Positions 4,443 through 19,849 of a DNA stretch of 24,000 nucleotides are shown one piece after another (positions within the stretch are counted from its first letter, which is position 1; every line of letters starts with the position of its first letter). The notes under the pieces were generated by a model. It saw nothing but the letters and a program-made list of their open reading frames with translations, did not search any database and was not told the origin of the DNA. Source of the stretch: Methanorbis furvi (GTDB lineage: Archaea; Halobacteriota; Methanomicrobia; Methanomicrobiales; Methanocorpusculaceae). Where the stretch lies: NCBI RefSeq assembly GCF_032714615.1, contig NZ_JAWDKA010000008.1:30505-54504 (forward strand), written 5' to 3'. The position numbers and the translations under genes were made by a program.

Positions 4443-4511
4443 GCCAATCCCGGCTCTCAATCAATACCATATTTTCAATTTTCTCTGATTCTTTTGTTGT
4501 TTTTGATTTTT

Positions 4512-4952
4512 GATATCGTTGTAGCTCCGCCGCTTCGTCGATCCGCCCACGGAAAAACGGAAAACACAGAAATTTTACGGAAATAAAAACATCACGGAGC
4601 AGACGTGAACAACACGGAATTTTAAATTATTTAGAATAGGACTTACGCGGTGTGGTTCTCCGTGCATTTTTGCGAAGCAATGAGCAGGCCGAAGGCATGC
4701 GATTTCATTTTTTTCCGTGAAGCTCTGTGTGCTCAGTGCATTCAGTGGTTACTCTAAGTGAGGACAAGGACAGAAAAATCTCAAACGATGAAACTCATCA
4801 CCGCGTAACTCCTATTAGAAATTACAAAATACGAGAGCCTTGTACACGATTTATCCTGAGTATATTTCCGTGCTGTTCACGTCTGCTCCGTGATGTTTTT
4901 CCGTGAAACTCCGTGTTTTCCGATATTCTGTGGGCGGAGCTACAACGATATC
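4512..4952. repeat. Long-arm palindromic MITE-like element, copy 1 (A-type centre, with a nested fragment)
   Basis: The termini GATATCGTTGTAGCTCCGCC (4512-4531) and GGCGGAGCTACAACGATATC (4933-4952) are perfect inverted repeats. The arms run inward to the core ATCACGGAGCAGACGTGAACA(A/G)CACGGAA (4591-4619; reverse complement at about 4866-4894). An inner inverted repeat is TTAGAATAGGACTTACGCGGTG (4631-4652) paired with CACCGCGTAACTCCTATTAGAA (4799-4820). The centre carries an extra arm-like fragment (4705-4738) and a GAAGGCATGCG module. Confidence 0.9.
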
Positions 4953-4996
4953 TCAAGCGACAGTCTTAACCTGTTTCTTCTGCAATATACTTTTAC

Positions 4997-5821
4997 ATGA
5001 ATTCTCTGTTGTTTGAACGCCTTGCCTCAGCGGTTGCGGAGGCTACACGCGATGCGGAGATTTTTCTTCCCTCAGACGTTGAGGCTGCACTGAAAAATGC
5101 AGCTGAGGCGGAGACGAGTCCGGTTGCCCGCGGCGAGCTTGCGAATATTCTGGAGAATCTCAATAAAGCAAAAAGCCTCTCGGTCCCCATCTGCCAGGAC
5201 ACAGGAATTCCGGTGGTGTACCTGACCGTGCCGCCAACAGTTCCGGTAACAAAGGAGCTCTATGACGCAGTTGCCGAAGGAATTCGGAGAGCAACAGTAT
5301 CGGTGCCGCTCCGGCCAAATGCGGTGGACCCGATTTCTCGGCACAACAGCGGGGACAATACGGGCGCAGGACTGCCGCCGATACACATCCTGCCAGGGGA
5401 CACACTGCGGGTGACGGTGCTGCCGAAGGGAGCTGGCTCAGAGAATATGTCGCAGATCAAAATGATGCTGCCCTCGCAGACCGCGGAGATTCCGAAGTTC
5501 GTGGTGGATGTGGTCATGGCGGCAGGTGCAAGACCCTGTCCGCCGATTGTGGTCGGGGTTGGTATTGGCGGAACATTCGACGGAGCGGCAGCGCTTGCCA
5601 AAGAGGCACTGCTTGAACGAATTGATGTGATGGATGCATATGAACAGGAGCTCTGCGATGCGATCAATACGCTCGGCATCGGCCCGATGGGACTTGGCGG
5701 CGACACGACGGCACTCGCGGTGAAGGTGAAGCGCGGATTCTGCCACACGGCATCACTGCCGGTCGCGGTAAACATTCAGTGCTGGTGCTGCCGGCGCGGC
5801 ATTCGGGAGGTGGAGTTGTGA
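4997..5821 (+). CDS. fumA: Class I (Fe-S) fumarate hydratase / tartrate dehydratase family, alpha subunit
   Basis: 274 aa. The motif ICQDTGIPVVY (Cys ligand region of Fe-S hydro-lyases) and the GVGIGG motif are present. It is followed by an overlapping beta-subunit gene. Confidence 0.85.
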   Translation: MNSLLFERLASAVAEATRDAEIFLPSDVEAALKNAAEAETSPVARGELANILENLNKAKSLSVPICQDTGIPVVYLTVPPTVPVTKELYDAVAEGIRRATVSVPLRPNAVDPISRHNSGDNTGAGLPPIHILPGDTLRVTVLPKGAGSENMSQIKMMLPSQTAEIPKFVVDVVMAAGARPCPPIVVGVGIGGTFDGAAALAKEALLERIDVMDAYEQELCDAINTLGIGPMGLGGDTTALAVKVKRGFCHTASLPVAVNIQCWCCRRGIREVEL

Positions 5822-6369
5822 TTCACCTGACGACTCCGCTGGGTGCGGAGGTCCTGGACTTGAAGGCAGGAGACCGCGTACTGCTATCCGGCACCATCTA
5901 CACGGCACGTGACGAGGCGCATCTGAAGATCCGTGAAGATGGTTTTCCGTTCGATCCGAACGGGGCGGTCATCTACCACTGCGGTCCGGTCGTGGACACG
6001 GAAAAGAACGTGATTGTTGCAGCAGGCCCGACAACATCCGCACGAATGAACTCGCTGACCAGACCAATGATTGATGCAGGAGTGCGGGCGCTGATCGGAA
6101 AAGGCGGGATGTCTGCTGAGGCACGCGAGGCGCTCTCAGGCAGAGCTGTCTACTTTGCATTCACGGGAGGCTGTGCCGCACTCGCGGCGTCTTGTATGGA
6201 GCTTGCTGCCTGCCATTATCCTGAGCTCGGCATGGCAGAGGCGGTCTGGGAGATTCGCATAAAGGACATGCCGCTTGTGGTGGGCATCGATGCGCACGGC
6301 GGCGATCTGTTCGATGATGTTGCGAAGTCTGCGGCTGAACGATACCGACAGCTGCACTGGGAAAAATAA
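5818..6369 (+). CDS. fumB: Class I (Fe-S) fumarate hydratase family, beta subunit
   Basis: The motif LSGTIYTARDEAH is typical of the beta subunit or C-terminal domain. I prefer the GTG at 5818, which overlaps the fumA stop (GTGA) and lies 7 nt after GGAGG (5806-5810). The ORF-track start at 5779 is also a GTG and would overlap fumA by 43 nt. The stop is unambiguous. Confidence 0.8.
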   Translation: MIHLTTPLGAEVLDLKAGDRVLLSGTIYTARDEAHLKIREDGFPFDPNGAVIYHCGPVVDTEKNVIVAAGPTTSARMNSLTRPMIDAGVRALIGKGGMSAEAREALSGRAVYFAFTGGCAALAASCMELAACHYPELGMAEAVWEIRIKDMPLVVGIDAHGGDLFDDVAKSAAERYRQLHWEK

Positions 6370-6443
6370 AGTTGGTTATCTGAATTTTTTTTACTCGGCA
6401 GGTGTAGTATGCATTACCTGTCGTGTTTGTTTTTGTCTGGTTC

Positions 6444-6497
6444 AATTTTTTTCGTGTGAAAATTGTACCGCGAAATTTCACGAAAAAAAACATGACA
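6444..6497. repeat. Collapsed mini-derivative of the palindromic element (mid-arm segments only)
   Basis: GTACCGCGAAATTTCACGAAAAAAAACATGAC (6465-6496) matches the arm segment GTACACGGAAATTTCACGGAAAAAAAACATCAC of copy 4. TTTTTTTCGTG (6446-6456) and CACGAAAAAAA (6479-6489) form a small hairpin. Confidence 0.45.
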
Positions 6498-6519
6498 AAA
6501 AAGTAATGAGCTGAAAAAA

Positions 6520-7191
6520 TTATTTTCTGCCGCCCACAATCACAACCGTCTTCTCCGTCATTCTGGCAAAAATACCATTGCCCAAAACGCCGGGAATAGC
6601 ATTGATCGCAGTCTCCAGTCCTGCCGGATCGGCAACCGCGCCGAACGCACAATCAATCACATAGTTTCCATTGTCAGAGATAACCGGCCCGTCCTTTTTC
6701 ACTCCGTTTCGCATAACCGGTTCGCCGCCCAGTTCACGAAGTCTGCGAACAACACTGCCGTACGCAAACGGCAGAACCTCGATCGGCACTGCCGCATCAA
6801 GACCCGCCACCTCTTTTCCTGCATCAATCACCACAACAAACTGGTTCGCCGCATCTGCCACAACCTTCTCCCGCAGATGTGCAGCTCCGCGCCCCTTAAT
6901 CATCCGCTTCTTTGGATCAACCTGATCCGCGCCATCAATCGCCAGATCAAGCTGTGGATGCTGCGTCAGCGTCGTCAACGGAATACCATACTCCTCAGCA
7001 CGCATCGCGGTCTGGTTTGACGTCGGCACACCAAGAACATGCAGCCCCTCGGATTTAATTCGTTCGCCAAGCCGCTCCATCGCAAAAAATACCGTTGAAC
7101 CGGTACCAAGGCCGACAACCATACCATCTTTCACCATATCTGCCGCGCGAATGCCGGCATCCCTCTTTGCCTCAACTACAGGATCACTCAT
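6520..7191 (-). CDS. rpiA: Ribose-5-phosphate isomerase A
   Basis: 223 aa with RpiA motifs GLGTGSTV, DGADQVD and KGRGAA. Confidence 0.9.
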   Translation of the reverse strand: MSDPVVEAKRDAGIRAADMVKDGMVVGLGTGSTVFFAMERLGERIKSEGLHVLGVPTSNQTAMRAEEYGIPLTTLTQHPQLDLAIDGADQVDPKKRMIKGRGAAHLREKVVADAANQFVVVIDAGKEVAGLDAAVPIEVLPFAYGSVVRRLRELGGEPVMRNGVKKDGPVISDNGNYVIDCAFGAVADPAGLETAINAIPGVLGNGIFARMTEKTVVIVGGRK

Positions 7192-7281
7192 ACCAATCTC
7201 GTATGTCAGTCGTGCATATTAAGCACTTGGTAACCCTGAAGAGGTTTTTTCACCGAAATTCGTTTATTGGCAACTAATGTT

Positions 7282-7600
7282 CGTTGTAGCTCCGCCCACG
7301 GAAAATCAGAACGCATGCCTTCGGCCTGCTTACTGCTTCGCAGGAACACGCGGAAATTTTACGGAAAAAAAGATCACGGAGCAGACGTGAACAGCACGGA
7401 AGAAAAAATTATTTTGAATAGGAATTACGCGGTTCGTGTTTAAAAAATCATTCTTGGCTGTCTCACTACTTCGCAGAATTACATCGCGTAACTCCTATTC
7501 AAAATAATTTTTTCTTCAGTGATGTTCACGTCTGCTCCGTGATCTTTTTCTGTGATATTTTCCGTGTACTCCGTTTTTCCGTGGGCGGAGCTACGAAACG
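7282..7600. repeat. Long-arm palindromic MITE-like element, copy 2 (A-type centre)
   Basis: The outer ends are CGTTGTAGCTCCGCCCACGG (7282-) and CCGTGGGCGGAGCTACGAAACG (-7600). The core lies at 7373-7401 and, as reverse complement, at about 7517-7543. Pairing continues through GAAGAAAAAATTATTTTGAATAGGA(A/G)TTACGCG (7399-7431 versus 7485-7518). The left arm carries a ~48-nt replacement module containing CGCATGCCTTCGGCCTG (7306-7352). Confidence 0.9.
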
Positions 7601-7653
7601 GTAACCAAAACGTGCGGTAACACCTCCCGAAGAAAAATGGCTAAGTCCAACAG

Positions 7654-7660
7654 TATTTAT
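7654..7660 (+). promoter_or_regulatory. TATA-like box upstream of MFS gene 1 (spacing implies a leaderless mRNA)
   Basis: TATTTAT is centred about 30 nt upstream of the ATG at 7687. No Shine-Dalgarno-like sequence lies between them. Confidence 0.3.
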
Positions 7661-7686
7661 CTGAACCCCTCGTAACACTCTACATA

Positions 7687-9141
7687 ATGCAGAATGAACA
7701 TCCAACCGGTTTCGCTTTAACACTCCTCCTCATATCAGCATCGCTCGCAACCTTCATGTCCGCACTTGACGGTACCATCGTCAATATTGCCCTCCCGACC
7801 ATCGCCGAATCATTCGACCTCAGCTCCTCCTCGGTCGCCTGGGTCTCCACTATCTATCTGCTGGTCATGGCAGGATTCCTTCTCATCATAGGAAAAATAT
7901 CCGATGTCATAGGATTCAAAAAAATATTTCTCGCAGGATTCATCCTCTTCACCATAGGATCATTCACTTGCGGATTTTTACCGGATTTCACCGGACAGTT
8001 CTCCACTCTTCTCGGTTCTCGTGCCCTTCAGGCAGTTGGCGGCGCAATGATGACCGTCATTGCCCCTGCTATGCTCTCCTACTATATGCCGGGCGACAGA
8101 AAAGCAAAAGGCATGTCCCTTGTCATCCTGTTCGCCTCTGTCGGTATGGCTCTCGGCCCGACGCTCGGCGGATACCTCACCGAATACCTCTCCTGGCACT
8201 GGATCTTTTTCATCAACGTACCGATTGGAATTTTTGCCGTGATTCTTGGCTACTTCGCAATCCCAGGCTCTGCTGGCAACAAATCATCGCTGAAAGGCTT
8301 TGACACTCTCGGTGCAGTCCTCGTTTTCGTCGGACTTGCCTCACTGCTCTTTGCCTTCTCCGAAGGTTTCAGCCTTGGCTGGACCTCTGCCACGATCCTG
8401 GTATCCTTAGCCCTTGCCGTTATCGGAATTGGCGGATTCCTCTGGCGCGAGCTGCACTACAAGAATCCCCTTCTTGACCTCAGCCTGTTCAGGAGCAGAT
8501 CCTTTATCATACTCAACCTGCTCGTCGTTCTGTTGTTCTTCACATTTGCAGGAGTAAACTATCTCCTCCCCTTCTATCTCCAGCATGTTCACAACTACAG
8601 CACTTCGTTCTCCGGTCTCATCATTACTGCAATGTCGGTGGGCATGATGGTCAGCGGAGTTCTCGCAGGTCTCATCTATGCAAAGCTTGTCGGTAAAATC
8701 CGTTATCTTGTCATGGCAGGTGTTGCACTGCTGGTGATCGGTTTCCTCCTTCTCACGGATCTGAATGCGACAACCGATCTCGGCCAGATTGTTCTGTCCC
8801 TTGCCCTGATTGGTTTTGGCCTTGGTCTTACCACAACGTCCCTTACCACGCTCATCATGAACGCAGCCCCCCAGTCAAAGCAGGGCATGGTCTCCAGCAT
8901 CACGGGTCTTGAACGGTTTGCTCCAATGACGATCGGTGTTGCGGTCTATAACATCATCTTCGTCTACGGCATTATCTCTGCAGTCCAGAACTCAGGCATC
9001 ACCGAAATGCCGCCGGCATCAATCGCTGCTGATATTCTCAGCTATGGATTTGATCTGGCGTTCATTGTATCGGTAGGACTTTCCATTCTTCTCTTCATTC
9101 TCTGCATCTTCATCCGTGAAGAGCGGGCAGTGGAAGAATAA
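7687..9141 (+). CDS. MFS transporter, 14-TMS DHA2 (EmrB/QacA-like) family
   Basis: 484 aa with about 14 hydrophobic segments. It has an MFS motif-A-like loop GKISDVIGFKKIF and the N-terminal LDGTIVNIALPTI signature typical of DHA2. Confidence 0.85.
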   Translation: MQNEHPTGFALTLLLISASLATFMSALDGTIVNIALPTIAESFDLSSSSVAWVSTIYLLVMAGFLLIIGKISDVIGFKKIFLAGFILFTIGSFTCGFLPDFTGQFSTLLGSRALQAVGGAMMTVIAPAMLSYYMPGDRKAKGMSLVILFASVGMALGPTLGGYLTEYLSWHWIFFINVPIGIFAVILGYFAIPGSAGNKSSLKGFDTLGAVLVFVGLASLLFAFSEGFSLGWTSATILVSLALAVIGIGGFLWRELHYKNPLLDLSLFRSRSFIILNLLVVLLFFTFAGVNYLLPFYLQHVHNYSTSFSGLIITAMSVGMMVSGVLAGLIYAKLVGKIRYLVMAGVALLVIGFLLLTDLNATTDLGQIVLSLALIGFGLGLTTTSLTTLIMNAAPQSKQGMVSSITGLERFAPMTIGVAVYNIIFVYGIISAVQNSGITEMPPASIAADILSYGFDLAFIVSVGLSILLFILCIFIREERAVEE

Positions 9142-9168
9142 TTTTTTTTCAAAAATAATTTTTTTTTT
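9142..9168 (+). terminator. Double oligo-T tract after MFS gene 1
   Basis: T8 (9142-9149) and T10 (9159-9168) lie directly after the stop codon at 9139-9141. Confidence 0.35.
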
Positions 9169-9220
9169 CGGAAAGTACGTCCCCTATACTGTTATATTCA
9201 GCTACCGCGTATATTGTGCA

Positions 9221-10717
9221 ATGTCAAAATCCACGGCTAATACCGCGGCAACATGTGGCGTAGGGCTTTTGATCTTCGTGGTCGCCCTTGCAGCATTCAT
9301 GTCCGCCCTTGACGGAACCATCGTCAACATCGCAATTCCCACCATTTCAGAGATCTTCAATCTCTCCGCATCCTCGGTCAGCTGGGTTGCAACCATCTAT
9401 CTGCTGGTGATGGCAGGCTGTATTCTCATCTGCGGAAAAGTTGCGGATGTAGTTGGGTTCAAGAAGATTTTTCTTGCAGGTTTTGCAATATTCACCATAG
9501 GCTCCTTTGCCTGCGGATTTTTCCCCGGACTTCTGGACTCCTACCCTTCGCTTCTGATAGGCCGTGTCTTACAGGCAATTGGCGGTGCAATGCTGATGGC
9601 GATTGCTCCGGCAATGATAACCACGTTTGTTCCTCTGAACCAGAAAGGAAAAGCGATGGGAATTCTGATGACCATTGCTGCTCTCGGCACTGCTCTTGGT
9701 CCGGTTCTCGGAGGATTTTTGACCCAGTACCTCTCCTGGGAATGGATCTTTTACATCAACGTGCCTGTGGGCATCATTGCTATTGCTCTTGGATTCAAAG
9801 CGATTCCTGTGCAGGATAAGAGCACGGCAACGCTCAAGACGTTTGATAAATACGGCGCTGTACTCATCTTCCTTGGCCTTGCAACGCTGCTCTACGCTTT
9901 CTCTGAAGGTCTGTCCCTTGGCTGGACCAGTCCGGTGATTCTCGGTTGCTTTGCAGTTGCCGCAGTTACGCTTGTCGGGTTTGTTATCCGCCAGCTCAGG
10001 TATGCTGAGCCGCTGCTTGATCTGAGGCTGTTCAAAAACCCGAACTTTTTCTTAACCAATCTGGCATTTGTCCTTGTGATTGCAAGCTTTGCCGGAATTA
10101 ACTATCTGATGCCGTTTTTTCTGCAGTATGTCCGCGACTTCAGCGTCTCTGATGCAGGACTTGTGCTGACTTCGCTTTCGATTGGTATGATGGTCACCGG
10201 CATTCTTTCAGGGATACTTTTCAACAAATTCGGCGGAAAAATCCTCTGTATTGTTGGTGCCCTGCTGCTGCTTACCGGCTACTTCCAGCTCTGGCACATG
10301 GACTCGCTGACCAGCACCGGCTATATTATCGGCGCACTCTTTGTTGTGGGTCTTGGTCTCGGCATGATGATGTCGCCGTTGACCAATATGATTCTCTCTT
10401 CTGTTGCTAAAGGCAAACAGGGTATGGTCTCGAGCCTCACGGGTCTTGAGCAGTTTGCTCCGATGACGATCGGTATTGCTGTCTACAACCTTATTCTGGT
10501 CTGGGGCATCACGACGATTGCGGCCGCGGAAAATATTACGGAGACAACGCCGATCAATATCCAGATGGATCTGCTTGCCCATGGGTTTGATGTGGCGTTC
10601 CTTGCATCCTTTATCCTCGCGGTCTTTGTGCTAATACTTTCTCTTGTTATCCGTCAGAAGACGCACCCTGATCATCAGGGCAGCACAGAACTTGAGCATG
10701 CGGGCGGGATTATCTAA
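9221..10717 (+). CDS. MFS transporter, 14-TMS DHA2 family (tandem paralog)
   Basis: It is collinear with the upstream paralog (LDGTIVNIAIPTI, GKVADVVGFKKIF, LTGLEQFAPMTIG). I chose the ATG at 9221 (MSKSTANT...) because the ORF-track start at 9116 lies inside the previous gene and its T-rich terminator. A TATA-like GTTATATTC at 9191-9199 is centred about 26 nt upstream. Confidence 0.85.
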   Translation: MSKSTANTAATCGVGLLIFVVALAAFMSALDGTIVNIAIPTISEIFNLSASSVSWVATIYLLVMAGCILICGKVADVVGFKKIFLAGFAIFTIGSFACGFFPGLLDSYPSLLIGRVLQAIGGAMLMAIAPAMITTFVPLNQKGKAMGILMTIAALGTALGPVLGGFLTQYLSWEWIFYINVPVGIIAIALGFKAIPVQDKSTATLKTFDKYGAVLIFLGLATLLYAFSEGLSLGWTSPVILGCFAVAAVTLVGFVIRQLRYAEPLLDLRLFKNPNFFLTNLAFVLVIASFAGINYLMPFFLQYVRDFSVSDAGLVLTSLSIGMMVTGILSGILFNKFGGKILCIVGALLLLTGYFQLWHMDSLTSTGYIIGALFVVGLGLGMMMSPLTNMILSSVAKGKQGMVSSLTGLEQFAPMTIGIAVYNLILVWGITTIAAAENITETTPINIQMDLLAHGFDVAFLASFILAVFVLILSLVIRQKTHPDHQGSTELEHAGGII

Positions 10718-10744
10718 TCTTTTTTTGAAATAAATTTCTTTATT

Positions 10745-10819
10745 GAGAATTTTACAAATAATTTTTTGGGATACTCTATGAACCAAAAAAATCGACTAAA
10801 TTTTTTTGTGGTATCACAG
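10745..10819 (+). repeat. Solo B-type centre module of the palindromic element, without arms
   Basis: GAGAATTTTACAAATAATTTT...CCAAAAAAATCGACTAAATTTTTTTGTGGTATCACAG aligns by eye with the copy 3 centre AATAATTTTGCAAAAATATTT...CAAAAAAAGATCATTAATTTTTTTATGGTATCACACAG (15659-15731). No CACGG arms flank it. Confidence 0.55.
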
Positions 10820-10872
10820 CCCCCTCATTCATTTACGTTTATCACTCTCCGCGTCCAAAAGATACATACTCT

Positions 10873-12306
10873 ATGGACTGGGCAGAACGATACCGGCCCG
10901 AGCATCTCGCAGACATTCTCGGAAACAACGCCGCAGTCAAACAGATATCAGACTGGGCGCGAAACTGGACGCCAAGCTCCCGCCCTCTTCTGATCACCGG
11001 AAAACCCGGCATCGGAAAAACCTCCGCAGCCTTAGCCCTCGCCCGCGACATGGACTGGGAGGTTCTGGAGCTGAACGCAAGTGATGCCAGAACCAAATCA
11101 GTGATCGAGCGGGTTGCCGGAAACTCTGCTGCGACCACCAGCCTCTTTGGCGCGAGCCGAAAACTGATCATCATCGACGAAGCTGACAACCTCGAAGGAA
11201 ATGCTGACCGTGGGGGTGCACGCGCGATCGCTGATATTTTGAAAGAAGCCCGCCAGCCGATCATATTGATCGCAAACGATGCATATGGAGTTTCGGATTC
11301 GATTCGCAAGCTCTGTGATGCTGTGCCTTTCCGTTCCATCACTTCGTCCACGATGGAGAAGCGGATGCGTGAGATCTGCACAATGGAAAAGATCTCCTGC
11401 GGTACAGACGCACTTTCCGCGATCGCGGAGAGTGCATCAGGCGACATGCGGTCTGCGGTCAATATGCTGTTCGGCGCATCAACCGGCAAAACCGCCATCA
11501 CTGCTGAGGATGTAAACACCTCGCAGAAGGATGAACGCGCAAGCATTTTTGATCTGGTCGCAGGAGTCTATTCTGGTGCTCCTGATGCAAAACTTCAGAA
11601 GCTCTCGCGCGAGTGTGAGGAGAAACCCGACACCGTTATGCAGTGGGTTGAGGAGTCTGCGTCCGCGGTCGCTGATGCCGGCAGGCGAGCAAGAGCGTAT
11701 GCCGCACTCTCCCGTGCAGACATCTATCTTGGGCGGACGATGATCCGCCAGTACTACACGCTCTGGCGGTACGCAACTGCGATGACAACCTCAGGGGTTG
11801 CCAAAGAGTTTGACGGCGCAGGGTTCCGGCCCAGAATTATGCCGCCGTCACGCTGGCGGAGAATGGGCACGGCAAAAAAGCAGAAGACGGTTCGACGAAC
11901 CCTTGCCGCAAAACTCGGCGAAGGCTACAGTATTCCTGATGCACAGATTCAGCGCGTTTACTTGGACCTTCTCTCGCGGTTTGCCGCAGCATCCCCGCTG
12001 GAGTTCTGCGAACGCCATGATCTTGATGATGACCAGCTGACGATTCTGCTCCATGACAAAACTGAAGCCACAGCCGTGTTTAAGGAAGCGCAGAAACTTG
12101 CAAAGGAGCGGGAGATGAAGATGAAAAAGATCTCTGCGGCAAAACGTGCGGCTGCGCGAAAAGAGGAGGAGGAGCGCGAAGCAGAACTGGAAAAGTTCAG
12201 AGCGGAAAATCCTCCGGTGCAGCAGGTTGTTCCAGAAGTTGTACCTGAGCCGGTAGTTGAAGAAAAAAAGAAGGCTCCGTCTCAGGCAACGCTGGACTTC
12301 TTCTGA
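10873..12306 (+). CDS. rfcL: Replication factor C large subunit
   Basis: 477 aa. The N-terminus has WAERYRP (RFC box II), Walker A GKPGIGKTS and Walker B IIIDEADN. It ends in a charged Lys/Glu-rich tail and a PIP box. Confidence 0.9.
   Translation: MDWAERYRPEHLADILGNNAAVKQISDWARNWTPSSRPLLITGKPGIGKTSAALALARDMDWEVLELNASDARTKSVIERVAGNSAATTSLFGASRKLIIIDEADNLEGNADRGGARAIADILKEARQPIILIANDAYGVSDSIRKLCDAVPFRSITSSTMEKRMREICTMEKISCGTDALSAIAESASGDMRSAVNMLFGASTGKTAITAEDVNTSQKDERASIFDLVAGVYSGAPDAKLQKLSRECEEKPDTVMQWVEESASAVADAGRRARAYAALSRADIYLGRTMIRQYYTLWRYATAMTTSGVAKEFDGAGFRPRIMPPSRWRRMGTAKKQKTVRRTLAAKLGEGYSIPDAQIQRVYLDLLSRFAAASPLEFCERHDLDDDQLTILLHDKTEATAVFKEAQKLAKEREMKMKKISAAKRAAARKEEEEREAELEKFRAENPPVQQVVPEVVPEPVVEEKKKAPSQATLDFF
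12283..12303 (+). other. C-terminal PCNA-interacting peptide (PIP box) of RfcL
   Basis: The last seven codons encode QATLDFF, which fits Q-x-x-[LIM]-x-x-[FY]-[FY]. A C-terminal PIP box is established for archaeal RFC large subunits. Confidence 0.6.
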
Positions 12307-12319
12307 TTATTTTTTTTCT

Positions 12320-12472
12320 GAAACGCGAATAGCGCGAATAAAAAATCGCCAATGGCGATTTTTCAAAAGAAATTATTTATATTTCTTTGAGGGATTCTAT
12401 CGAAAAAATAAGTAATTTAGTATTTTCTTAAAAATCGCCATTGGCGATTTTTTATTCGCGTTATTCGCGTTT
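12320..12472. repeat. Second, unrelated palindromic element (43-nt inverted arms, each with its own hairpin plus T-run)
   Basis: The left arm is GAAACGCGAATAGCGCGAATAAAAAATCGCCAATGGCGATTTTT (12320-12363). The right arm is AAAAATCGCCATTGGCGATTTTTTATTCGCGTTATTCGCGTTT (12430-12472). I count 1 mismatch in 43 nt, with a ~65-nt AT-rich spacer. Each arm contains the sub-hairpin ATCGCC-AAT-GGCGAT flanked by A5/T5-6. A further ATTCGCG copy lies at 12481-12487. Confidence 0.85.
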
Positions 12473-13108
12473 TTCACATGATTCGCGTTCCGGATGCTTC
12501 TCCTCGTACGCAGCATCAGGACCGAGTGCATGCAGCTCATCAAGTGTATTGATATTTTGGAACGTCTCCAGATTTGGATCAAACCTGCGCAGCTCTTCTG
12601 AACTCACCCGCAGCGTATGCAGCGAATTCACCATATCGCGAAGCGACAGCGACTCATGATGTGCCAGATACTGCCGCAGTGCAGAAACGCGGTAGACTGC
12701 ATGCAGAGGTTCGATATCCGTGTTCTCCCACTCAGGAATGATCGCATCGTACTCGCCGATATGATCAAACAGATACGTCACAATCGAGCGGTGAATCGTT
12801 GGCATATCGCATGCCGCAATAAACACAAACTCTCCTTTGACCTCTTCAATTCCTGACGAAATTCCCCCGATCGGTCCAAGACCCCGCAGCTTATCCCAAG
12901 TGCATCGAACCGGCAGCCCGTCGAACTGCTTTGCCTGCTCCTCACTCTTGGCAACAATCAAAATCTCATCCGCAATTCCCGTAAACGTCATCACCAGCCG
13001 CGAAATAAACGAACATCCCTTGTAAAAGAAAAAATACTTCTCGCGTCCGTTCACCCTTTTTGCCTCGCCGCCGGCAAGAATCATCGCCGAGCGCCGCACC
13101 TCAGTCAT
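12461..13108 (-). CDS. mobA: Molybdenum cofactor guanylyltransferase (MobA-like)
   Basis: MobA motifs are present: ILAGGEAKR, GPIGG, ACDMP and EPLHAVY. The ATG overlaps the panE stop (ATGA). The last ~10 codons (PERESCEKRE) and the stop codon lie inside the CGCGAAT repeat element. Confidence 0.8.
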   Translation of the reverse strand: MTEVRRSAMILAGGEAKRVNGREKYFFFYKGCSFISRLVMTFTGIADEILIVAKSEEQAKQFDGLPVRCTWDKLRGLGPIGGISSGIEEVKGEFVFIAACDMPTIHRSIVTYLFDHIGEYDAIIPEWENTDIEPLHAVYRVSALRQYLAHHESLSLRDMVNSLHTLRVSSEELRRFDPNLETFQNINTLDELHALGPDAAYEEKHPERESCEKRE

Positions 13109-14013: not shown

Positions 14014-14272
14014 AGTAATTTCGGAATTATATTCGTTTTAACAATACATGAAGTCAACAGATTGAACATTACAGTAGTATTTTGAGCCGCCCGCGAAATG
14101 CAGGCCTTCACCGCAGCTTGGAAATCTCCTGCAAACCCAACAGACCGGCATCCTGACTGGGAAAAAACTCATCTCTTTCGCCCCCTCCTTCCCAAGAAAA
14201 TTATACACAAATACTCATCCTGATATGTATTGTAACAATATCGGCCTACAAATCATCACAATACGTTACAAT

Positions 14273-14282
14273 AAATTAAATA
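14273..14282 (+). promoter_or_regulatory. TATA-like box upstream of the binding-protein gene
   Basis: AAATTAAATA is centred about 28 nt upstream of the ATG at 14306, which supports that ATG as a leaderless start. Confidence 0.3.
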
Positions 14283-14305
14283 CACCTGTCGAACAATATG
14301 AATGT

Positions 14306-15532
14306 ATGAATACAAAGCATCTGCTTGCAGCTGCAGGTCTTCTTGTTGTGTGTGCGGCAATGGTTTTTGCCGCCGGTTGTGTAACAACACCGAACGACTC
14401 CGACAAAACTCCGACAGTGGAAATTCTCTACACCGGAGCTGGTACTATGCCCGCACTTCTTGCAACCGGAAAAATTGACGGATACATCATCTGGCAGCCG
14501 TTTGTGGCGGTCGGTGTCGAAGGCGATGTAGGAAAAATCGTTTCATACAGCCAGAACCTGCCGCCGGAAGGCATGTGGGTGGAGCACACCTGCTGTGCTT
14601 TTGGTGCAAACTCCGAAGCGCTGAAAAATCCTGACATTGCCACGAGCCTTGTTGCGCTCACCATTCTTGGCAACAAGTACATCAACGATTATCCTGACAA
14701 ATCCGCAGAGCTTACCGCAGACTGGCTGTTCTCCAAACAGGACATGACGTATGGTGAGATCACCGTGAACTCGGTTGACGTGCTGGAGGCTTCAATTCCG
14801 ACAATTATGTTCTCAAGCAAGGTGACAAACACCTGGCTTGACAGCAATGAGGAGTTCATCAACGCCCAGCGTGAGCTTGGTCTGATCTCAGGAAAACTCC
14901 TGTCCACTACCCCGGCACAGTCCAAGGATCTGCTCTATGATTTCGGCCCGTACGAGTCAGCGACCCAGCAGATTGCCAGCGGCAAACTTACGACGCCCGC
15001 GGCCGTGAAGACGCCGATTTCGATTGGATACCTGCCAAGCGATCATGATGCTCCGCTGTTTGTCCTTCTGAAGGACTGGCAGTACTTCAAGGACACCTAC
15101 AACTCCTATCTGAAACCGACCACCGATAAGGCAGGAAAGGTTTCTGAGGCAGAGCTTTTCATCAATGGCGAGAAGATTGCTGATGTGAAGTTCGTCGAAG
15201 GAACTGGCGGCCCGCAGCTGATGACCCTGCTTGCGCAGAACACGATTCAGTATGCGGTTGCCGGAACCCCGCCTTATATCAGCGCAATTGATATGAGTAC
15301 CGGCAATGTCGGCTTAAAGATTCTTGCTCCGATTATGCAGGAAGGCTCAGGTCTTGTTGCGTCCATCAACTCTCCGGCAGATGACTGGCAGTTGTTTGTC
15401 AAATGGGTCAAGGACCGCAGTGCTGAAGGAAACAATGTGGTGATCGCTGATCCACAGCTTGGTTCTATTCAGGATGTGCAGCTCAAAGCAGCACTCAAAG
15501 ACGCAGGTATTACTGTAGTCACTAAAAAGTAA
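14306..15532 (+). CDS. ABC-transporter substrate-binding lipoprotein, SsuA/NMT1 family, apparently circularly permuted
   Basis: The start is set at the ATG at 14306 (MNTKHLLAAAGLLVVCAAMVFAAGC), giving a signal peptide plus lipobox-like AAGC. The ORF-track start at 14225 adds an unlikely leader. The C-terminal half has ISIGYLPSDHDAPLF...GGPQLMTLL...GSIQDVQLKAALKDAGI, which resembles a canonical N-lobe. The N-terminal half has GAGTMPALLATGKIDGYIIWQPF, the canonical late W-E/D-P motif. Confidence 0.8.
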   Translation: MNTKHLLAAAGLLVVCAAMVFAAGCVTTPNDSDKTPTVEILYTGAGTMPALLATGKIDGYIIWQPFVAVGVEGDVGKIVSYSQNLPPEGMWVEHTCCAFGANSEALKNPDIATSLVALTILGNKYINDYPDKSAELTADWLFSKQDMTYGEITVNSVDVLEASIPTIMFSSKVTNTWLDSNEEFINAQRELGLISGKLLSTTPAQSKDLLYDFGPYESATQQIASGKLTTPAAVKTPISIGYLPSDHDAPLFVLLKDWQYFKDTYNSYLKPTTDKAGKVSEAELFINGEKIADVKFVEGTGGPQLMTLLAQNTIQYAVAGTPPYISAIDMSTGNVGLKILAPIMQEGSGLVASINSPADDWQLFVKWVKDRSAEGNNVVIADPQLGSIQDVQLKAALKDAGITVVTKK

Positions 15533-15535
15533 GAG

Positions 15536-15565
15536 ACGGTTTTCTGAACCGTTTTTCTTTTTTTT
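15536..15565 (+). terminator. Hairpin plus oligo-T after the binding-protein gene
   Basis: ACGGTT-ttctg-AACCGT (15536-15552) is followed by TTTTCTTTTTTTT (T8 at 15558-15565). Confidence 0.4.
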
Positions 15566-15579
15566 AATCTGTGATCAAT

Positions 15580-15862
15580 CGCCCACGGAAAAACGGAAAG
15601 TGCGGAGTTTCACGGAAAAACATCACTGAGAGGCGTGAACAACACGGAATTTAAAAATAATAATTTTGCAAAAATATTTCTTCACAATTTTTTCAAAAAA
15701 AGATCATTAATTTTTTTATGGTATCACACAGACTCCTAAATAATTATTTCCGTGCTGTTCACGTCTGCTCCGTGATTTTTTTCCGTAAAATTTCTGTGTG
15801 CTCCGATTTTCCGTGGGCGGAGCTGTGACGAAGGCATGCGAATCGTGGGCGGAGCAGAACGT
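15580..15862. repeat. Long-arm palindromic MITE-like element, copy 3 (B-type centre, + orientation)
   Basis: The left arm CGCCCACGGAAAAACGGAAAG...AACACGGAA spans 15580-15649 and is the most diverged arm. The right arm TTCCGTGCTGTTCACGTCTGCTCCGTGAT...CCGTGGGCGGAGCTG spans about 15748-15825. Flank modules GAAGGCATGCG and GGGCGGAGCAGAACG extend to 15862. The AT-rich centre spans 15650-15747. Confidence 0.9.
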
Positions 15863-15889
15863 ACCACAACACCAAAAATAGAAAAAAAA

Positions 15890-16456
15890 TTACAGCCCGC
15901 AGATCTCTTTCAACAGAGCCCCAGCCTCGCGTTCGCGGGGGCCGCCACACTTCGCAATAATTCCCAAATGATACTCGATCAGCATCTTCAGCGAATCATC
16001 TCTGCTGTGGACATACCGCGTTGCATGAACAGTCGCATCAATAACACTGTTGAAACCACGGTTAATCGGACGAGGATCCTCGCGGATGTACTCGGATGCA
16101 ACCGGCATCAGCTCAATGTAATACGTCTCCTCAGTCTCATGAAGAACCTGCGTCAGAAATCCCATCCACGCATCAGCGCCAGACAGCCTCTGCATCATAA
16201 CTCCGCCCACAAACACCTTGGAAAGATCTGACGGAGCCGCATCAGAAAACGCATACTGCGGATACAGATAACAGTCAGAGACAAAGTTCGCCGTAACCCA
16301 TCCGTGTTTGAGAATATTTTCAACGGTCGCCGACCCCTTAAAAAGAATCATTCGCGGAGACATCCCGGGCTTCACAATAATTCCCATCGGAGCTGCGTTG
16401 TCCTTTGTCACCGCAATAACTTCGGTAATACCTTCGCCTAACAGTCCCATTTCCAT
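15890..16456 (-). CDS. DUF447-family protein (H4MPT-linked conserved protein)
   Basis: 188 aa. I recognise the family from memory (a split-barrel-like protein found in methanogens and in methylotroph H4MPT gene clusters). Its start overlaps the stop of the upstream CitG-like gene, and it is the last gene of a three-gene minus-strand operon. Confidence 0.65.
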   Translation of the reverse strand: MEMGLLGEGITEVIAVTKDNAAPMGIIVKPGMSPRMILFKGSATVENILKHGWVTANFVSDCYLYPQYAFSDAAPSDLSKVFVGGVMMQRLSGADAWMGFLTQVLHETEETYYIELMPVASEYIREDPRPINRGFNSVIDATVHATRYVHSRDDSLKMLIEYHLGIIAKCGGPREREAGALLKEICGL

Positions 16457-17268
16457 CCCTCTAAAAGTGCGGTAAAAATTCCCGCAATACAGATATCAGC
16501 AAGAGAACCAGGGTTGATACCATCTCTGATGCACTCCTCATCAAACTCTGCAAGCGTTTCATTCCCTGCAAGAACCGCGGCCGCTTTTTGCATAACCGCT
16601 TCAGCAGTTGCCTGATCAAACTTTTTCGCAATAAACGTGTCAGGACACTCGGCCATCAGCGACAGAAACATTTTCGTAATGTTTTTTTCCCCATCACCAA
16701 GTTCAAACAGCAGATTGGCAGCTCTCCGGGTCAGCAGAAATCCGTTCGTCCACTCGCGGGCAACCATGTCATGCAGGGCTGAATACTCCATCACCTGATA
16801 CATCGTGATCTTCTCATCGATCAGCCGCTGAATCGATGAAGGATCATTTACATCCATAGGATCTTCGGATCTGACCCGCACCTGCGTAAGGCCGAATGCT
16901 TTGTAAAAGAGAACCGCATCCTCGATCGTGGTCTTTTTCACCACCTCTGCCGCGCCGGCAGTTCCTCTGCCTGCGATCAGCGGAAGAAGAAGAATGAATG
17001 CGCCAAAATGTGTGTTGCCGCCGTTATGGATATTGGTTCTGGCAACCGCATCGTACATCGCTTCTCCAAGCGAGATACTGCCTTCCGCAACGCGGGAGAA
17101 CACCGGTCCTGCCAGAACTGCGGATGCCAGAAAATGTGCAAGATGCGTGTCATCATAATCATGACATCGGTCGATATTGCCGGGCTTCTGCTTTGCGGTG
17201 ACCTCAAGCAGCATGGCAAACTGTGCAAGTTCGGCGAGATTAACAGGTTCAACAGTCTGTTGGGACAT
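16438..17268 (-). CDS. Triphosphoribosyl-dephospho-CoA synthase (CitG)-like protein
   Basis: It aligns by eye with E. coli CitG: LLEVTAKQKPGNIDRCHDYDDTHLAHFLASA versus MLTEVNLSPKPGLVDR...HKDMALEDFHRSA, and the C-terminal INPGSLADI versus LSPGGSADL. The start is set at MSQQTVEP (17268). The ORF-track start at 17301 overlaps the upstream gene by 53 nt. Confidence 0.75.
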   Translation of the reverse strand: MSQQTVEPVNLAELAQFAMLLEVTAKQKPGNIDRCHDYDDTHLAHFLASAVLAGPVFSRVAEGSISLGEAMYDAVARTNIHNGGNTHFGAFILLLPLIAGRGTAGAAEVVKKTTIEDAVLFYKAFGLTQVRVRSEDPMDVNDPSSIQRLIDEKITMYQVMEYSALHDMVAREWTNGFLLTRRAANLLFELGDGEKNITKMFLSLMAECPDTFIAKKFDQATAEAVMQKAAAVLAGNETLAEFDEECIRDGINPGSLADICIAGIFTALLEGWKWDC

Positions 17269-18364
17269 CGGCGAAGATCTTCTCCATGATACCATCCGCA
17301 AGATCCCGTTTCAGCGCCATATACTCATTCTTTGGAAGAGGAACAGCCTTCAGTGTCATATCGCGGAACATGCAGGGTGTGGAAGATTTGCAGCACCAGG
17401 CAAGACTGCCGAAGCAGGTGTGGCTTCCCTGAGAGATTGGCGAACCCTGCACAAGTCCTTCTTTGAGTGCGAGGTAATCCTGGCGGCTCATGTCGATAGA
17501 GTCGAGGGTTGACAGCAGCGGACACTGTTTTACCGGCATGCAGCAGAACGTCAGGGACCTGAGGTCGCCGCCGCGGCAGAGCTGTTTGGGAGAGTTATAC
17601 CAGCCGCTTTCTTCGGCGGTCGCACGAATGTAGCGGTCAAGAAGCTGGAGTGTTGGCACGCTTGCACCTCTTGCAAGGGAGACGAGGTCAGCACCGTGCG
17701 AGAACATGTCCATCATTTTGTCAGGGGAGTCGATGCTGTTGTTGGCGATGAGAATGAGAGGGCAGCTGTTTCTGATCTGGCGGATGCGGGTGTATCCGGT
17801 ATCCATCAGGTCGATATGCAGAATGTCTGCGCCGGCAGCCCAGAGTTTTCTGGCAAGCAGCCGGTCGTCAGTGACGCCTGCCCGGGTTTTTACCGAGATG
17901 GTGACGCCTTCTGCATGAAGGGCGCGAACGATGTCACAGAGGGCGTCGGTATTGTGAAGGAGATATTCGCCGCAGTGGGCTTCGATCATGGGCTGCTGGC
18001 GGCAGTGGGCATCGATCTCATAGATTACATTTTTTCCGAATTTGCGGGCGGCGGCAACGAAGGCTTCGGGTGTTGAGCCGCGAAGGTTGAGACCGATCAC
18101 CAGATTGGATCCTTCCAGCATGGCAAGTTCGGTTGCGATGTCGTCCAGACTGTCGGAAAACTCGGTGCGGCCTGCTGCAACCATCTGTTTTGCCGCGTTT
18201 TGCGTGGCCGCGTCCAGGGAAAATCCGCCGATAAATGCAGCTCCGACATGGGCGGCACGTTCGAGAACGTACGCGGCGTCGGTAATTCCCGCCATGGATG
18301 CGAGTACAACCGGTGTTTTGACCGGTTTTCCATTCAGTGATAAAAATCTGTTCGACCCTCGCAT
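17249..18364 (-). CDS. NifR3/Dus-like TIM-barrel protein fused to a methanogenesis marker domain 9 (Cys-rich)
   Basis: The N-terminal ~250 aa resemble the Dus/NifR3 FMN TIM barrel (PVVLASMAGITD...). The C-terminal ~110 aa carry two copies of an aromatic-CC-x5-C motif (FCCMPVKQCP and WCCKSSTPCMF) plus extra Cys. This matches my recollection of the TIGRFAMs marker-9 domain description, which notes such NifR3 fusions. Confidence 0.7.
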   Translation of the reverse strand: MRGSNRFLSLNGKPVKTPVVLASMAGITDAAYVLERAAHVGAAFIGGFSLDAATQNAAKQMVAAGRTEFSDSLDDIATELAMLEGSNLVIGLNLRGSTPEAFVAAARKFGKNVIYEIDAHCRQQPMIEAHCGEYLLHNTDALCDIVRALHAEGVTISVKTRAGVTDDRLLARKLWAAGADILHIDLMDTGYTRIRQIRNSCPLILIANNSIDSPDKMMDMFSHGADLVSLARGASVPTLQLLDRYIRATAEESGWYNSPKQLCRGGDLRSLTFCCMPVKQCPLLSTLDSIDMSRQDYLALKEGLVQGSPISQGSHTCFGSLAWCCKSSTPCMFRDMTLKAVPLPKNEYMALKRDLADGIMEKIFADVPTDC

Positions 18365-18442
18365 AGATTCTATACGTATTGGTGCTCAGGGATATTTAGT
18401 CTGACGGAGGCGGCGGTGTAGTTTTATGGGTGAACAGTTTAC

Positions 18443-18770
18443 CATCCGCATGCCTTTGTCGCAGCTCCGCCCACGGAAAAACGGAGTACACGGAAATTTC
18501 ACGGAAAAAAAACATCACGGAGCAGACGTGAACAGCACGGAATTTGAAAATAATAATTTTGCAAAAATATTTCTTCAGGATTTTTTTCAAAAAAAGATCA
18601 TTATATTTTTTTATGGTATCGCACAAAACTCTAAAAAATTATTTCCGTGCTGTTCACGTCTGCTCCGTGATGTTTTTTTTTCCGTGAAATTTCCGTGTGT
18701 TCTGATTTTCCGTGGGCGGAGCAGAACCCGCAACCGGAGCAGAACGTGTGAACGAAGCAGAATTCAGAAC
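18443..18770. repeat. Long-arm palindromic MITE-like element, copy 4 (B-type centre, + orientation)
   Basis: The left arm GCAGCTCCGCCCACGGAAAAACGGAGTACACGGAAATTTCACGGAAAAAAAACATCACGGAGCAGACGTGAACAGCACGGAA spans 18461-18542. Its reverse complement spans about 18644-18724. The AT-rich centre spans 18543-18643. The flank modules are CGCATGCCTTTG on the left (18448-18459) and GGAGCAGAAC repeats on the right (to about 18770), ending 7 nt before the stop codon of the nuclease gene. Confidence 0.9.
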
Positions 18771-18776
18771 GCAGCG

Positions 18777-19238
18777 TTACGGTACAGAAAAGCATTCCAG
18801 ATGATATCCATAGGAGGTGCGTTCCAAGGGAATGCATTTGCGGAACTCCTCGATTGGGATACTTGCCTGCATATCATAAAATGCGCAGACCGTTTCCCAG
18901 GGCATCAGGTATGCCTCGTTTTTTTGCCCGACGCCGCGAAACTCGACCGCAAGAAATCCTTTGCGACCGGTATATTTGAGAAAACCTGAGATGTTGTCGA
19001 TCTGATGTACGCCGTCTTTGTCTTTGTGGAAGTTGCTGGAAAACGACAGCCGTTTTCCTTTCAGCGACTTGCACTCGATCGCAAGATAATGCGCAGGGTC
19101 CAGAGAGTCAACGATGATGTCAACGTACTGGGCATTGAAGCGTGCCTGTTTGAGGCGGTAGGCAAATCCCTTCATCCGGTGTTCGGTAAAATACCGGTTC
19201 ACGCAGTTGACCACAGTACGCTCGAAATCATTTGCCAT
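18777..19238 (-). CDS. Hjc-family (archaeal Holliday-junction resolvase-like) PD-(D/E)xK nuclease
   Basis: 153 aa. E6 ... D40 ... E55-C-K57 (YVDIIVD...YLAIECKS) reproduces the Hjc catalytic E/D/E-x-K arrangement. The downstream GFLAVEFR parallels Hjc's PVLAVKF strand. The protein is about 20-30 aa longer than the canonical Hjc I remember. Confidence 0.55.
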   Translation of the reverse strand: MANDFERTVVNCVNRYFTEHRMKGFAYRLKQARFNAQYVDIIVDSLDPAHYLAIECKSLKGKRLSFSSNFHKDKDGVHQIDNISGFLKYTGRKGFLAVEFRGVGQKNEAYLMPWETVCAFYDMQASIPIEEFRKCIPLERTSYGYHLECFSVP

Positions 19239-19273
19239 TTCTTTTCTTCATGTTTCGTCTGAGAGATGATGAA

Positions 19274-19282
19274 CTTTTATAG
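19274..19282. promoter_or_regulatory. Shared quasi-palindromic TATA box for the divergent nuclease and ywbE genes
   Basis: CTTTTATAG (reverse complement CTATAAAAG) lies in the 59-nt divergent spacer. It is about 40 nt from the nuclease ATG (19238) and about 20-29 nt from the ywbE ATGs (19298 and 19307). Confidence 0.3.
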
Positions 19283-19297
19283 CGGTACAGGCTCTAC

Positions 19298-19510
19298 ATG
19301 AACGGTATGCTTGACGGACGTGTACGAAAAAATATCAGACCGGGAACTGCGGTGGCAGTGGTGTTAAAGGCTGATCAGCCGACCGGTGCTTTAACATGGG
19401 GGAGGGTTGCAGAAATTCTCACGAACTCGTCCACGCATCCGCATGGAATCAAAGTGCGGCTCACGAACGGACAGGTCGGCAGAGTCCAGCAGATTTACGA
19501 TGATGAATAA
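19298..19510 (+). CDS. ywbE: YwbE-family small protein (DUF2196)
   Basis: 70 aa. The signature ILTNSSTHPHGIKVRLTNGQVGRVQQI matches the YwbE/DUF2196 conserved core as I remember it. Confidence 0.75.
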   Translation: MNGMLDGRVRKNIRPGTAVAVVLKADQPTGALTWGRVAEILTNSSTHPHGIKVRLTNGQVGRVQQIYDDE

Positions 19511-19528
19511 CGACAGGCTTCACTCGTC

Positions 19529-19849
19529 GCTGCTCCGCCCAGGACTCGCATGATTTCGTAACAGCTCCGCCCACGGAAAAACGGATCACACGGAAAAACG
19601 CACGGAAAAAAACATCACGGAGTAGACGTGAACAGCACGGAAATAAATTTTTTAAAATTGCGGTGTGATACCATAAAAAATCACATGATCTTTTTTTGAA
19701 AAAATCTTGAAGAAATATTTTTGCAACATTTTTATTTTCAAATTCCGTGCTGTTCACGTCTGCTCCGTGATGCTTTTCTGTGAAACTCCGTGTGTTCCGT
19801 TTTTCCGTGGGCGGAGCAAAACGTGCGTGTGAAGCAGAACATGCGTCAC
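19529..19849. repeat. Long-arm palindromic MITE-like element, copy 5 (B-type centre, inverted relative to copies 3 and 4)
   Basis: The left arm AGCTCCGCCCACGGAAAAACGGATCACACGG...ATCACGGAGTAGACGTGAACAGCACGGAA spans 19563-19641. The right arm spans about 19743-19815. The centre (19642-19742) is the reverse complement of the copy 3/4 centre. There is an extra partial end GCTGCTCCGCCCAGG at 19529-19543, and a right flank module GGAGCAAAACGTGCGTGTGAAGCAGAAC reaching about 19849. Confidence 0.9.

Follow-up and report, generated by a model that had tools for sequence, protein, structure and literature searches.

Five long palindromes in a Methanorbis genome segment: a probable new family of small, foldback-like mobile elements

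In a 24,000-nt stretch of the Methanorbis furvi contig NZ_JAWDKA010000008.1 (positions 30,505 to 54,504; hereafter the window), one long palindromic repeat recurs five times, mostly between genes, which raises the question of what this repeat is and how it came to lie at five sites with unrelated flanks. The genus Methanorbis inhabits the guts of millipedes, cockroaches and termites (PMC10684969). A sequence-only reading of the window had proposed a non-autonomous mobile repeat resembling a miniature inverted-repeat transposable element (MITE) or the repetitive extragenic palindromes (REP) and bacterial interspersed mosaic elements (BIME), and this proposal is supported by orthologous sites that are empty at two phylogenetic depths. 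We conclude, at a probability of roughly 0.72, that the five copies represent an undescribed family of small non-coding mobile elements of foldback or MITE-like type whose host is the genus Methanorbis. Comparison with relatives shows that the copies arrived by insertion at differing times, and that the elements accept further insertions, exchange sequence and serve as crossover points for genome rearrangement.

The relatives used for comparison lie at graded distances. The marker-9 protein of the window is identical (100%) to that of Methanocorpusculaceae archaeon Sp1 and the DNA identity to the Sp1 assembly is only 97-98%, so that the window belongs to a close sister strain of Sp1, for which three loci (L001, L067 and L073) were compared. 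Two loci of M. rubei Cs1 (L068 and L074) share about 90-92% nucleotide identity with the window. A more distant Methanorbis metagenome-assembled genome (MAG), CAZABQ01, contributed loci L002 and L069, and two Logan contigs (L003 and L004) completed the set.

The repeat was found at all five loci for which it had been claimed, by a repeat finder, by reading and by a hidden Markov model (HMM) of the arms. The repeat finder listed the five loci among its families of direct repeats and again among its inverted pairs. The heptamer CACGGAA occurs 30 times in the window where 3.8 occurrences are expected, 28 of the 30 lying inside the five copies; the HMM, built from eight arms, matches the window at these loci only, with E-values from 1e-12 to 1e-22; and copy 4, taken as single-stranded DNA, folds with -101.6 kcal/mol (z = -20). 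Because of this heptamer excess, the arm matches and the copy 4 fold, the repeat is not a product of chance. Copies measure 280-440 bp and occur at a density of about one per 5-7 kb; they make up about 60% of the intergenic DNA of the window and occupy all five of its spacers longer than 350 bp, and the annotation of Sp1 has no gene calls in these spacers.

Copy 1 (4509-4952) lies in the spacer between the tandem genes rpl10e and fumA, with arms at 4541-4619 and 4866-4940 and a second small element, the beta-MITE, nested at 4632-4819. Copy 2 (7241-7601), in the spacer between the divergent rpiA and MFS genes, has arms at 7282-7401 and 7515-7591 and a short nested beta-MITE at 7414-7503; in addition it carries a degenerate end of the kind termed T1 (7250-7278) and, in its left arm only, a hairpin block termed module A (7312-7343). 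Copy 3 (15576-15856) sits between the convergent SBP and DUF447 genes, its arms (15580-15649 and 15748-15823) enclosing a centre of type alpha (15650-15747), and reaches 15856 by a second outer GTGGGCGGAGC terminus. Copy 4 (18408-18783), between the tandem marker-9 gene and a gene for a protein now 153 aa long (156 aa before the insertion), has arms at 18464-18542 and 18643-18722 around a centre alpha (18543-18642), with outer modules at both sides and an ACGG flank on each. Copy 5 (19511-19848), in the spacer between the convergent DUF2196 and chagasin genes, has arms at 19564-19642 and 19743-19817 and a centre alpha (19643-19742) in reversed orientation. The gene neighbours are those first described (the gene then called ywbE encodes the DUF2196 protein, and the product then called a nuclease has no Pfam match), and insertion is indeed independent of a single transcriptional context. 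The centre length of 50-150 bp given earlier does not apply to copy 1, whose centre spans 246 bp, or 58 bp without the nested 188-bp element. As the comparison with empty sites shows, the inserted DNA exceeds the palindrome: it runs from 4515 to 4948, from about 7236 to about 7645, from 18408 to 18783 and from about 19511 to about 19848.

The empty orthologous sites carry the case for mobility. A check for presence or absence among relatives, proposed with the sequence-only reading, found an empty orthologous site for each of copies 1, 2, 4 and 5. In place of the 434 bp of window 4515-4948 M. rubei has 7 nt (GCGAAGC), rpl10e there adjoining fumA, and the copy 1 site is empty in the CAZABQ01 MAG as well. 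The GCGAAGC heptamer of the M. rubei site (L068 9944-9952) stands within GGATGCGAAGCTATCC and may be the footprint of an excision or a mini-hairpin that inserted on its own. Without the element, the spacer between the MFS and rpiA genes measures 102 bp in CAZABQ01, as opposed to 495 bp in the window, which holds copy 2. At the copy 4 site M. rubei, the CAZABQ01 MAG and the two Logan contigs all have an empty 31-bp spacer, and the window holds 376 extra bp (18408-18783) against 7 nt in M. rubei. Copy 4 is also the one for which the claim that every copy is intergenic fails: it is inserted into the final codons of the 156-aa gene, the product of which now ends in ...SVP where it formerly ended in ...SPSD, with loss of PSD. 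The orphaned codons and the former stop codon persist beyond the element (window 18777-18783 and 18396-18410). Copy 5 has an ortholog in M. rubei, whose left arm matches at 79/79 positions, its centre at 86% and its right arm at 87%, and is missing from the CAZABQ01 MAG. The site of copy 3 is occupied in all three close genomes, each time by a different palindrome: the window has a short version, that of Sp1 exceeds it by 165 bp and carries a module block in each arm plus a T1 end, and M. rubei has one with CACGAAA/CGCGAAA arms. A second check, for segmental duplication, excluded that explanation, the flanks of the copies being unrelated and further copies lying elsewhere in Sp1 and M. rubei. 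Sp1 has eight CACGG-type copies in 54 kb together with two elements of a sister type (type 2, see below), and M. rubei at least three CACGG-type copies in 21 kb; by extrapolation rather than by count, the genome-wide copy number would be in the hundreds.

Resident copies also take part in rearrangement. On the rpl10e side the window is collinear with Sp1 up to 4619, the inner end of the left arm of copy 1, and on the fumA side from 4655 onward, the corresponding points of the Sp1 contig (97,198 on the minus and 125,593 on the plus strand) being 28.4 kb apart and in opposite orientation. Both breakpoints (L067 10671 and L073 9659) fall inside elements, the gene order in Sp1 being rpl10e, element, tRNA-Arg(CCT) and TRM on one side and HD, a 706-bp element and fumA on the other. 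The 28.4-kb inversion is the derived state of Sp1, because the outgroups keep together what it separates: rpl10e-fumA is retained in M. rubei and CAZABQ01, and HD-tRNA-Arg-TRM in CAZABQ01. The crossover took place at or beside the conserved core of two oppositely oriented copies. Relative to the window, copy 5 of Sp1 further shows clustered swaps, AAACGGATC to AATCAGAAC and AAACGCACGG to AATTTCACGG, which look like short conversion tracts because both variants exist in other copies, and copy 3 has been rebuilt between the window strain and Sp1.

Two isolated pieces of the element in the window belong here. A single-arm relic, GTACCGCGAAATTTCACGAAAAAAAACAT, lies on the plus strand at 6463-6497 in the spacer between fumB and rpiA, and an armless centre alpha (…AAAAAAATCGACTAAATTTTTTTGTGGTATCACA) lies on the plus strand at 10720-10818, immediately upstream of the gene for RFC-large. 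Together they bracket the rpiA-MFS-MFS segment, which is inverted relative to CAZABQ01 (L069); its inversion between element pieces suggests an older element-mediated inversion. The 16-nt motif TTTTTrTGGTATCrCA is confined to centre alpha, to 10720-10818 and to one Methanocorpusculum element (L050), and the armless centre may be an element-borne promoter or the relic of one.

As to its anatomy, the element has a pair of inverted arms, each about 79 nt long, which enclose a centre that varies from 16 nt in one Sp1 copy (L073 ~6156-6172) to the 246 bp of copy 1. Six or seven CACGG(A) boxes line up in each arm, on average about 10.8 bp or roughly one helical turn apart; in copy 4 the CGG/CGT starts fall at arm positions 11, 19, 28, 39, 56, 65 and 76 (mean spacing 10.8 bp). 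The inner arm end is a nearly invariant 29-nt core, ATCACGGAGCAGACGTGAACAnCACGGAA. When 20 arms from three genomes are aligned, the box cores and this inner core are invariant or nearly so and the spacers between the boxes vary (AAATTTC, AGTTTC, AAATTTT, AAAACGC), the outer tips (GTnnnAGCTCCGCCC; TTCGTnnnAGCTCCGCCC) being the least conserved portion and frequently truncated. The arm consensus of the sequence-only reading was right: GCTCCGCCCACGGAAAAACGGAnnACACGGAAATTTCACGGAAAAAAACATCACGGAGCAGACGTGAACAGCACGGAA was reproduced by aligning ten arms of the window with two of Sp1. The inverted arms are 79-93% alike and have no internal dyad symmetry.

The elements had also been called modular; modules do exist, and they are nested insertions, the modular appearance resulting from beta-MITEs and GCGAAGC-type hairpin blocks lodged inside the elements. 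The beta-MITE, 188 bp long in copy 1, has ends like TAGAATAGGACTTACGCGGTG and terminal repeats ATrGGAGTTACGCGGT, and the one in copy 1 itself holds a GCGAAGC/module-A hairpin block at 4670-4702. In M. rubei copy 5 contains a nested beta-MITE of 194 bp, flanked by TTTGA, and the corresponding site in the window is empty (TTTTTTT^GAAAAAA). Module-A blocks are 31-75 nt long, and have the form C[CT]GCGAAGC[GA]G...AGCAGGCCGAAGGCATGCG; copy 2 carries them in one arm only, Sp1 copy 3 has them in both arms and the Sp1 element Ex (L073 9400-9660) in triplicate, whereas copies 3-5 of the window have none. C-GAA-G closes the hairpins of these blocks and is the motif of the unusually stable d(GCGAAGC) DNA mini-hairpin (PMC13037366). 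In the Sp1 locus L073, NNGCGAAGCNN is found 10 times against 0.7 expected, and the stems of the hairpin blocks show compensatory variants (GAGCC..GGCTC versus GAGAC..GTCTC).

A sister palindrome (type 2) occupies 12321-12476 of the window in the spacer between the genes for RFC-large and MobA. It has CGCGAAT boxes, AAAAATCGCCAATGGCGATTTTT and an AT-rich centre, and its right arm overlaps the stop codon of MobA. Another type-2 copy, in Sp1 (L001 1582-1868), holds the same module-A block as the CACGG-type elements; there the module-A stems (L001 1600-1631 and 1830-1855) are reverse-complemented between the arms and the GAA loop is on the same strand in both, an arrangement which hints that loop polarity may matter.

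Once in place, the copies change slowly. Between the window and Sp1 the elements differ at 1.37% of positions (21/1529), third codon positions at 5.77% and other spacers at 2.43% (elements versus third positions, Fisher P = 2.5e-15); compared with M. rubei, the orthologous copy 5 differs at 8.7% and third positions at 21.6% (P = 9e-9). Resident copies thus evolve 2.5-4 times more slowly than third codon positions, and the type-2 element has no difference between window and Sp1 over 183 nt, its flanks differing by about 5%. Since paralogous arms differ by 7-20%, frequent conversion between them would add differences rather than erase them, and we read the low values as probable constraint, the alternative being a locally low mutation rate.

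Does the hairpin itself matter, as had been suggested? Arm similarity within an element (0.827) does not exceed that between elements (0.807; permutation P = 0.14), and several elements combine unlike arm subtypes. Because arms do not co-vary within elements and unlike subtypes are paired, complementarity as such is not maintained; the idea that the very long hairpin is important is therefore not borne out, and recognition of the boxes on duplex DNA is favoured over a selected RNA or single-strand hairpin. The missing co-variation likewise rules out homogenisation within elements. The mechanism that we propose is that a protein encoded elsewhere in the genome would bind the phased CACGG boxes on double-stranded DNA and move the element, in a manner perhaps akin to that of a transposase on subterminal repeats. 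On this view the ability to form a hairpin would simply follow from two box arrays being inverted, and the slowly changing resident copies might still be bound and used by the mobilising protein, or might have been taken over by the host.

Related pieces reach beyond Methanorbis. On 24 contigs from genomes of Methanocorpusculum and Methanorbis the 19-mer AGCAGGCCGAAGGCATGCG of module A is present, frequently at an end of the contig, and it forms part of mosaics of small hairpins that resemble one another; among the 60 genome matches to module A, about 36 arose by chance in GC-rich bacteria. A 67-nt block is identical at 64 of 67 positions between Sp1 and CAZABQ01, the coding DNA of which is 75-85% identical. 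Further, Methanocorpusculum MAGs (HAC020.1, M. petauri) and the CAZABQ01 Methanorbis MAG contain GTTGCACCT-ended elements of 150-420 bp with asymmetric T1/T2 ends, bounded by inverted repeats. Like the five copies, these have the module-A block, CACGGAA-like boxes inside, a T1 end (T1 remnants occur at window 7250-7278 and in Sp1) and, in L050, the centre-alpha motif; unlike the five copies they are asymmetric, their terminal repeats are clear, and direct repeats of 7, 8 and 9 bp lie on either side of them (P = 0.005, 0.001 and 0.0005). In the literature searched, no earlier description of them was found either. The same architecture recurs with other box "dialects", namely CGCGAAT (window 12321-12476, L001 1582-1868 and a 55-bp form in M. 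rubei), CACGAAA (M. rubei) and ATCTGCG (Methanocorpusculum). Two bacterial matches from a metagenome scan with the T1 end and three in high-GC phage genes from a viral scan with module A are all attributable to chance.

These relations suggest a bolder idea, which we consider unlikely: the five copies would not be common cut-and-paste MITEs but one dialect of a system spread across the Methanocorpusculaceae, in which an archaeal protein family recognises inverted, phased arrays of heptamer boxes (CACGGAA, CGCGAAT, CACGAAA, ATCTGCG) together with GCGAAGC-type mini-hairpins, and would both mobilise the elements and use the resident copies. Such a system would account for the core being better conserved than the tip, for the constraint on resident copies and for a 67-nt block that is 95% identical across species whose genes are 75-85% identical.

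Searches for a known family or a responsible enzyme support the claim that this is not a described repeat: there was no Rfam match at gathering thresholds, no match in plasmid and phage collections, and no mention in the literature searched on Methanocorpusculum and Methanorbis genomes and in archaeal censuses of insertion sequences (IS) and MITEs. The best sub-threshold Rfam matches are generic long-hairpin families (73 bits against a gathering threshold of 211, and 38 against 65), MIR8562 (RF04128) and Wolbachia sRNA 46 (RF02625) sharing with the elements only the shape of a long, near-perfect hairpin. The exact 20-25-nt core had no match in species-representative genomes, Joint Genome Institute (JGI) metagenomes or viral contigs, a collection without the closest relatives; as the exact match in M. 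rubei was also missed, this zero is not evidence of absence. Among other candidates, a CRISPR array is excluded, there being no tandem repeat-spacer array, and so is a tRNA or other RNA gene, none having been found. Archaeal replication origins number one or few per genome and lie beside orc1/cdc6 at conserved positions, with origin recognition box (ORB) repeats around an unwinding element; here five copies lie in 24 kb, the window has no orc1/cdc6, and the sites are empty in relatives.

Five observations weigh against a family of mobile elements of foldback or MITE-like type. No convincing target-site duplication (TSD) was found at the five copies, the short flanking candidates being ACGG (copy 4), GAT/GATATC (copy 1) and GGTAACC (copy 2, uncorrected P = 0.015); a TSD does accompany the nested beta-MITE (TTTGA) and the GTTGCACCT-ended elements (7-9 bp). 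Conservation peaks in the inner core instead of at the tip, the reverse of ordinary transposons with terminal inverted repeats. Constraint on resident copies is unexpected of inert transposon remnants. The apparent homology of the arms to the GTTGCACCT-ended elements consists of short similarities that are beyond detection by the arm HMM. Finally, neither a transposase or recombinase nor a full-length partner was found in the window, as the claim that its genes include no transposase had stated, or in about 120 kb of Methanorbis loci.

How, then, do other explanations fare? The lack of a clear TSD would suit elements of the REP, BIME or REPIN type, in which single-stranded hairpins are moved by a tyrosine (Y1) transposase, either a REP-associated one (RAYT) or one of IS200/IS605 kind, and the palindromes are pairs of units. 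Elements of the window are likewise extragenic, mosaic and palindromic, and the module-A blocks are small C-GAA-G-closed hairpins with enriched NNGCGAAGCNN and compensatory stem variants. However, the arms are 79-nt box arrays and not imperfect palindromes of 20-40 nt, three of the five copies have no module A, arms within an element do not co-vary, and the loci read contain no Y1 transposase gene (a genome-wide search was not made). Moreover, the related elements are bordered by 7-9-bp direct repeats, a product that Y1 transposases are not known to make. We regard this type of element as an improbable explanation, on a par with the family-wide dialect system.

The constraint on resident copies points in another direction, namely to host elements that recombination would have spread and that would serve as two-way transcription stops or as arrays of sites bound by a chromatin or regulatory protein. 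Rates 2.5-4 times below those of third codon positions, the type-2 element identical over 183 nt amid flanks that differ by about 5%, and the phased, conserved boxes all fit such a role, as do the position of most copies at gene 3' ends and the runs of T5-T9 in the centres and T-rich arm strands, T runs being known to halt archaeal RNA polymerase. Yet relatives without the elements keep their own A/T-run terminators (e.g. AAAAAAAAGAATTTTTTT beside copy 5), the structure and centre length (16 to 250 bp) are highly variable, one copy cut the 3' end of a gene and another lies in a divergent promoter region, and the presence of copies at unrelated sites calls for more than recombination; host elements are in our view doubtful, if by a shade the least improbable of the rivals. 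A remnant or mimic of a plasmid or virus replication origin, with iterons in inverted order around an AT-rich centre, would match the origin-like architecture, and an integrated island of Sp1 is laid out similarly. Since the elements are dissimilar in sequence to that island, recur about once every 5-7 kb, have no initiator gene close by and match nothing in plasmid, phage and viral contig collections, we consider an origin remnant very improbable.

The reading as foldback or MITE-like mobile elements, which we prefer, can also be placed among known systems. Prokaryotic MITEs include SM1-SM4 of Sulfolobus, the Correia elements of Neisseria and the enterobacterial repetitive intergenic consensus (ERIC) sequences. 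With these the Methanorbis elements share small size, lack of coding capacity, multiple and mostly intergenic copies, inverted ends, presence/absence variation, nesting and the lack of a transposase of their own. Unlike them, they have arms of about 80-150 nt made of repeated boxes, an inner core that is the best conserved part, no clear TSD, no partner insertion sequence among the loci searched, and resident copies under constraint. Foldback (FB) transposons of Drosophila and other eukaryotes resemble them in long inverted arms of short reiterated motifs, in a variable centre that is sometimes nearly nil (16 nt in one Sp1 copy) and in the promotion of inversions and rearrangements. The likeness to FB transposons is architectural only, without sequence relation: the Methanorbis elements have an archaeal host, are far smaller, carry spaced rather than tandem boxes and have no associated transposase. 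REP/BIME mosaics and REPINs share the extragenic palindromic mosaics in inverted pairs, and module-A blocks recall REP units; unlike the REP/BIME/REPIN systems with RAYT, the arms here are not hairpin units, no RAYT was seen in the loci read, and the related elements have direct repeats of 7-9 bp. The closest kinds are thus prokaryotic MITEs and, in shape, eukaryotic foldback elements, with REP/BIME resembling the accessory hairpin blocks only. We take the repeat to be a new family that belongs to a known general kind, unusual in its box-array arms, best-conserved inner core, dense nesting, constraint and strain-level inversion.

Some further features of the window and of Sp1 were observed alongside. 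The genes for RFC-large and MobA (window 10873-13108) differ from Sp1 by about 5%, compared with 1-2.5% in neighbouring genes, and may be an imported recombination tract. Tandem paralogous MFS transporter genes (7687-9141 and 9230-10717) are up to 74-82% identical in stretches, and the gene for the chagasin-family inhibitor contains an internal 65-nt repeat (19916-19980 and 20252-20316, 89% identical) that fits two I42 domains. In Sp1 the island mentioned above, which is missing from the window, lies beyond tRNA-Arg and TRM (L067 12600-19000) and holds small open reading frames, an HNH gene, a PDDEXK_3 gene and an origin-like region (especially 15185-16116), where five iterons of 79 bp stand together with a palindrome whose 155-nt arms are 96% complementary and with inverted repeats that contain CGCAGAT boxes; an integrated virus or plasmid is the probable identity of the island.

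In an early genome comparison the count of transposable elements given for M. labreanum was zero (PMC2686161), and mobile DNA is little charted in this methanogen family. The elements described here mark gene-order differences between two strains that are 97-98% identical, their resident copies appear to be kept by selection, and they account for breaks of MAGs at these repeats within the family. As such, the family provides a handle on archaeal genome plasticity in gut symbionts and a tractable case for discovering a new archaeal DNA-binding or transposition protein.

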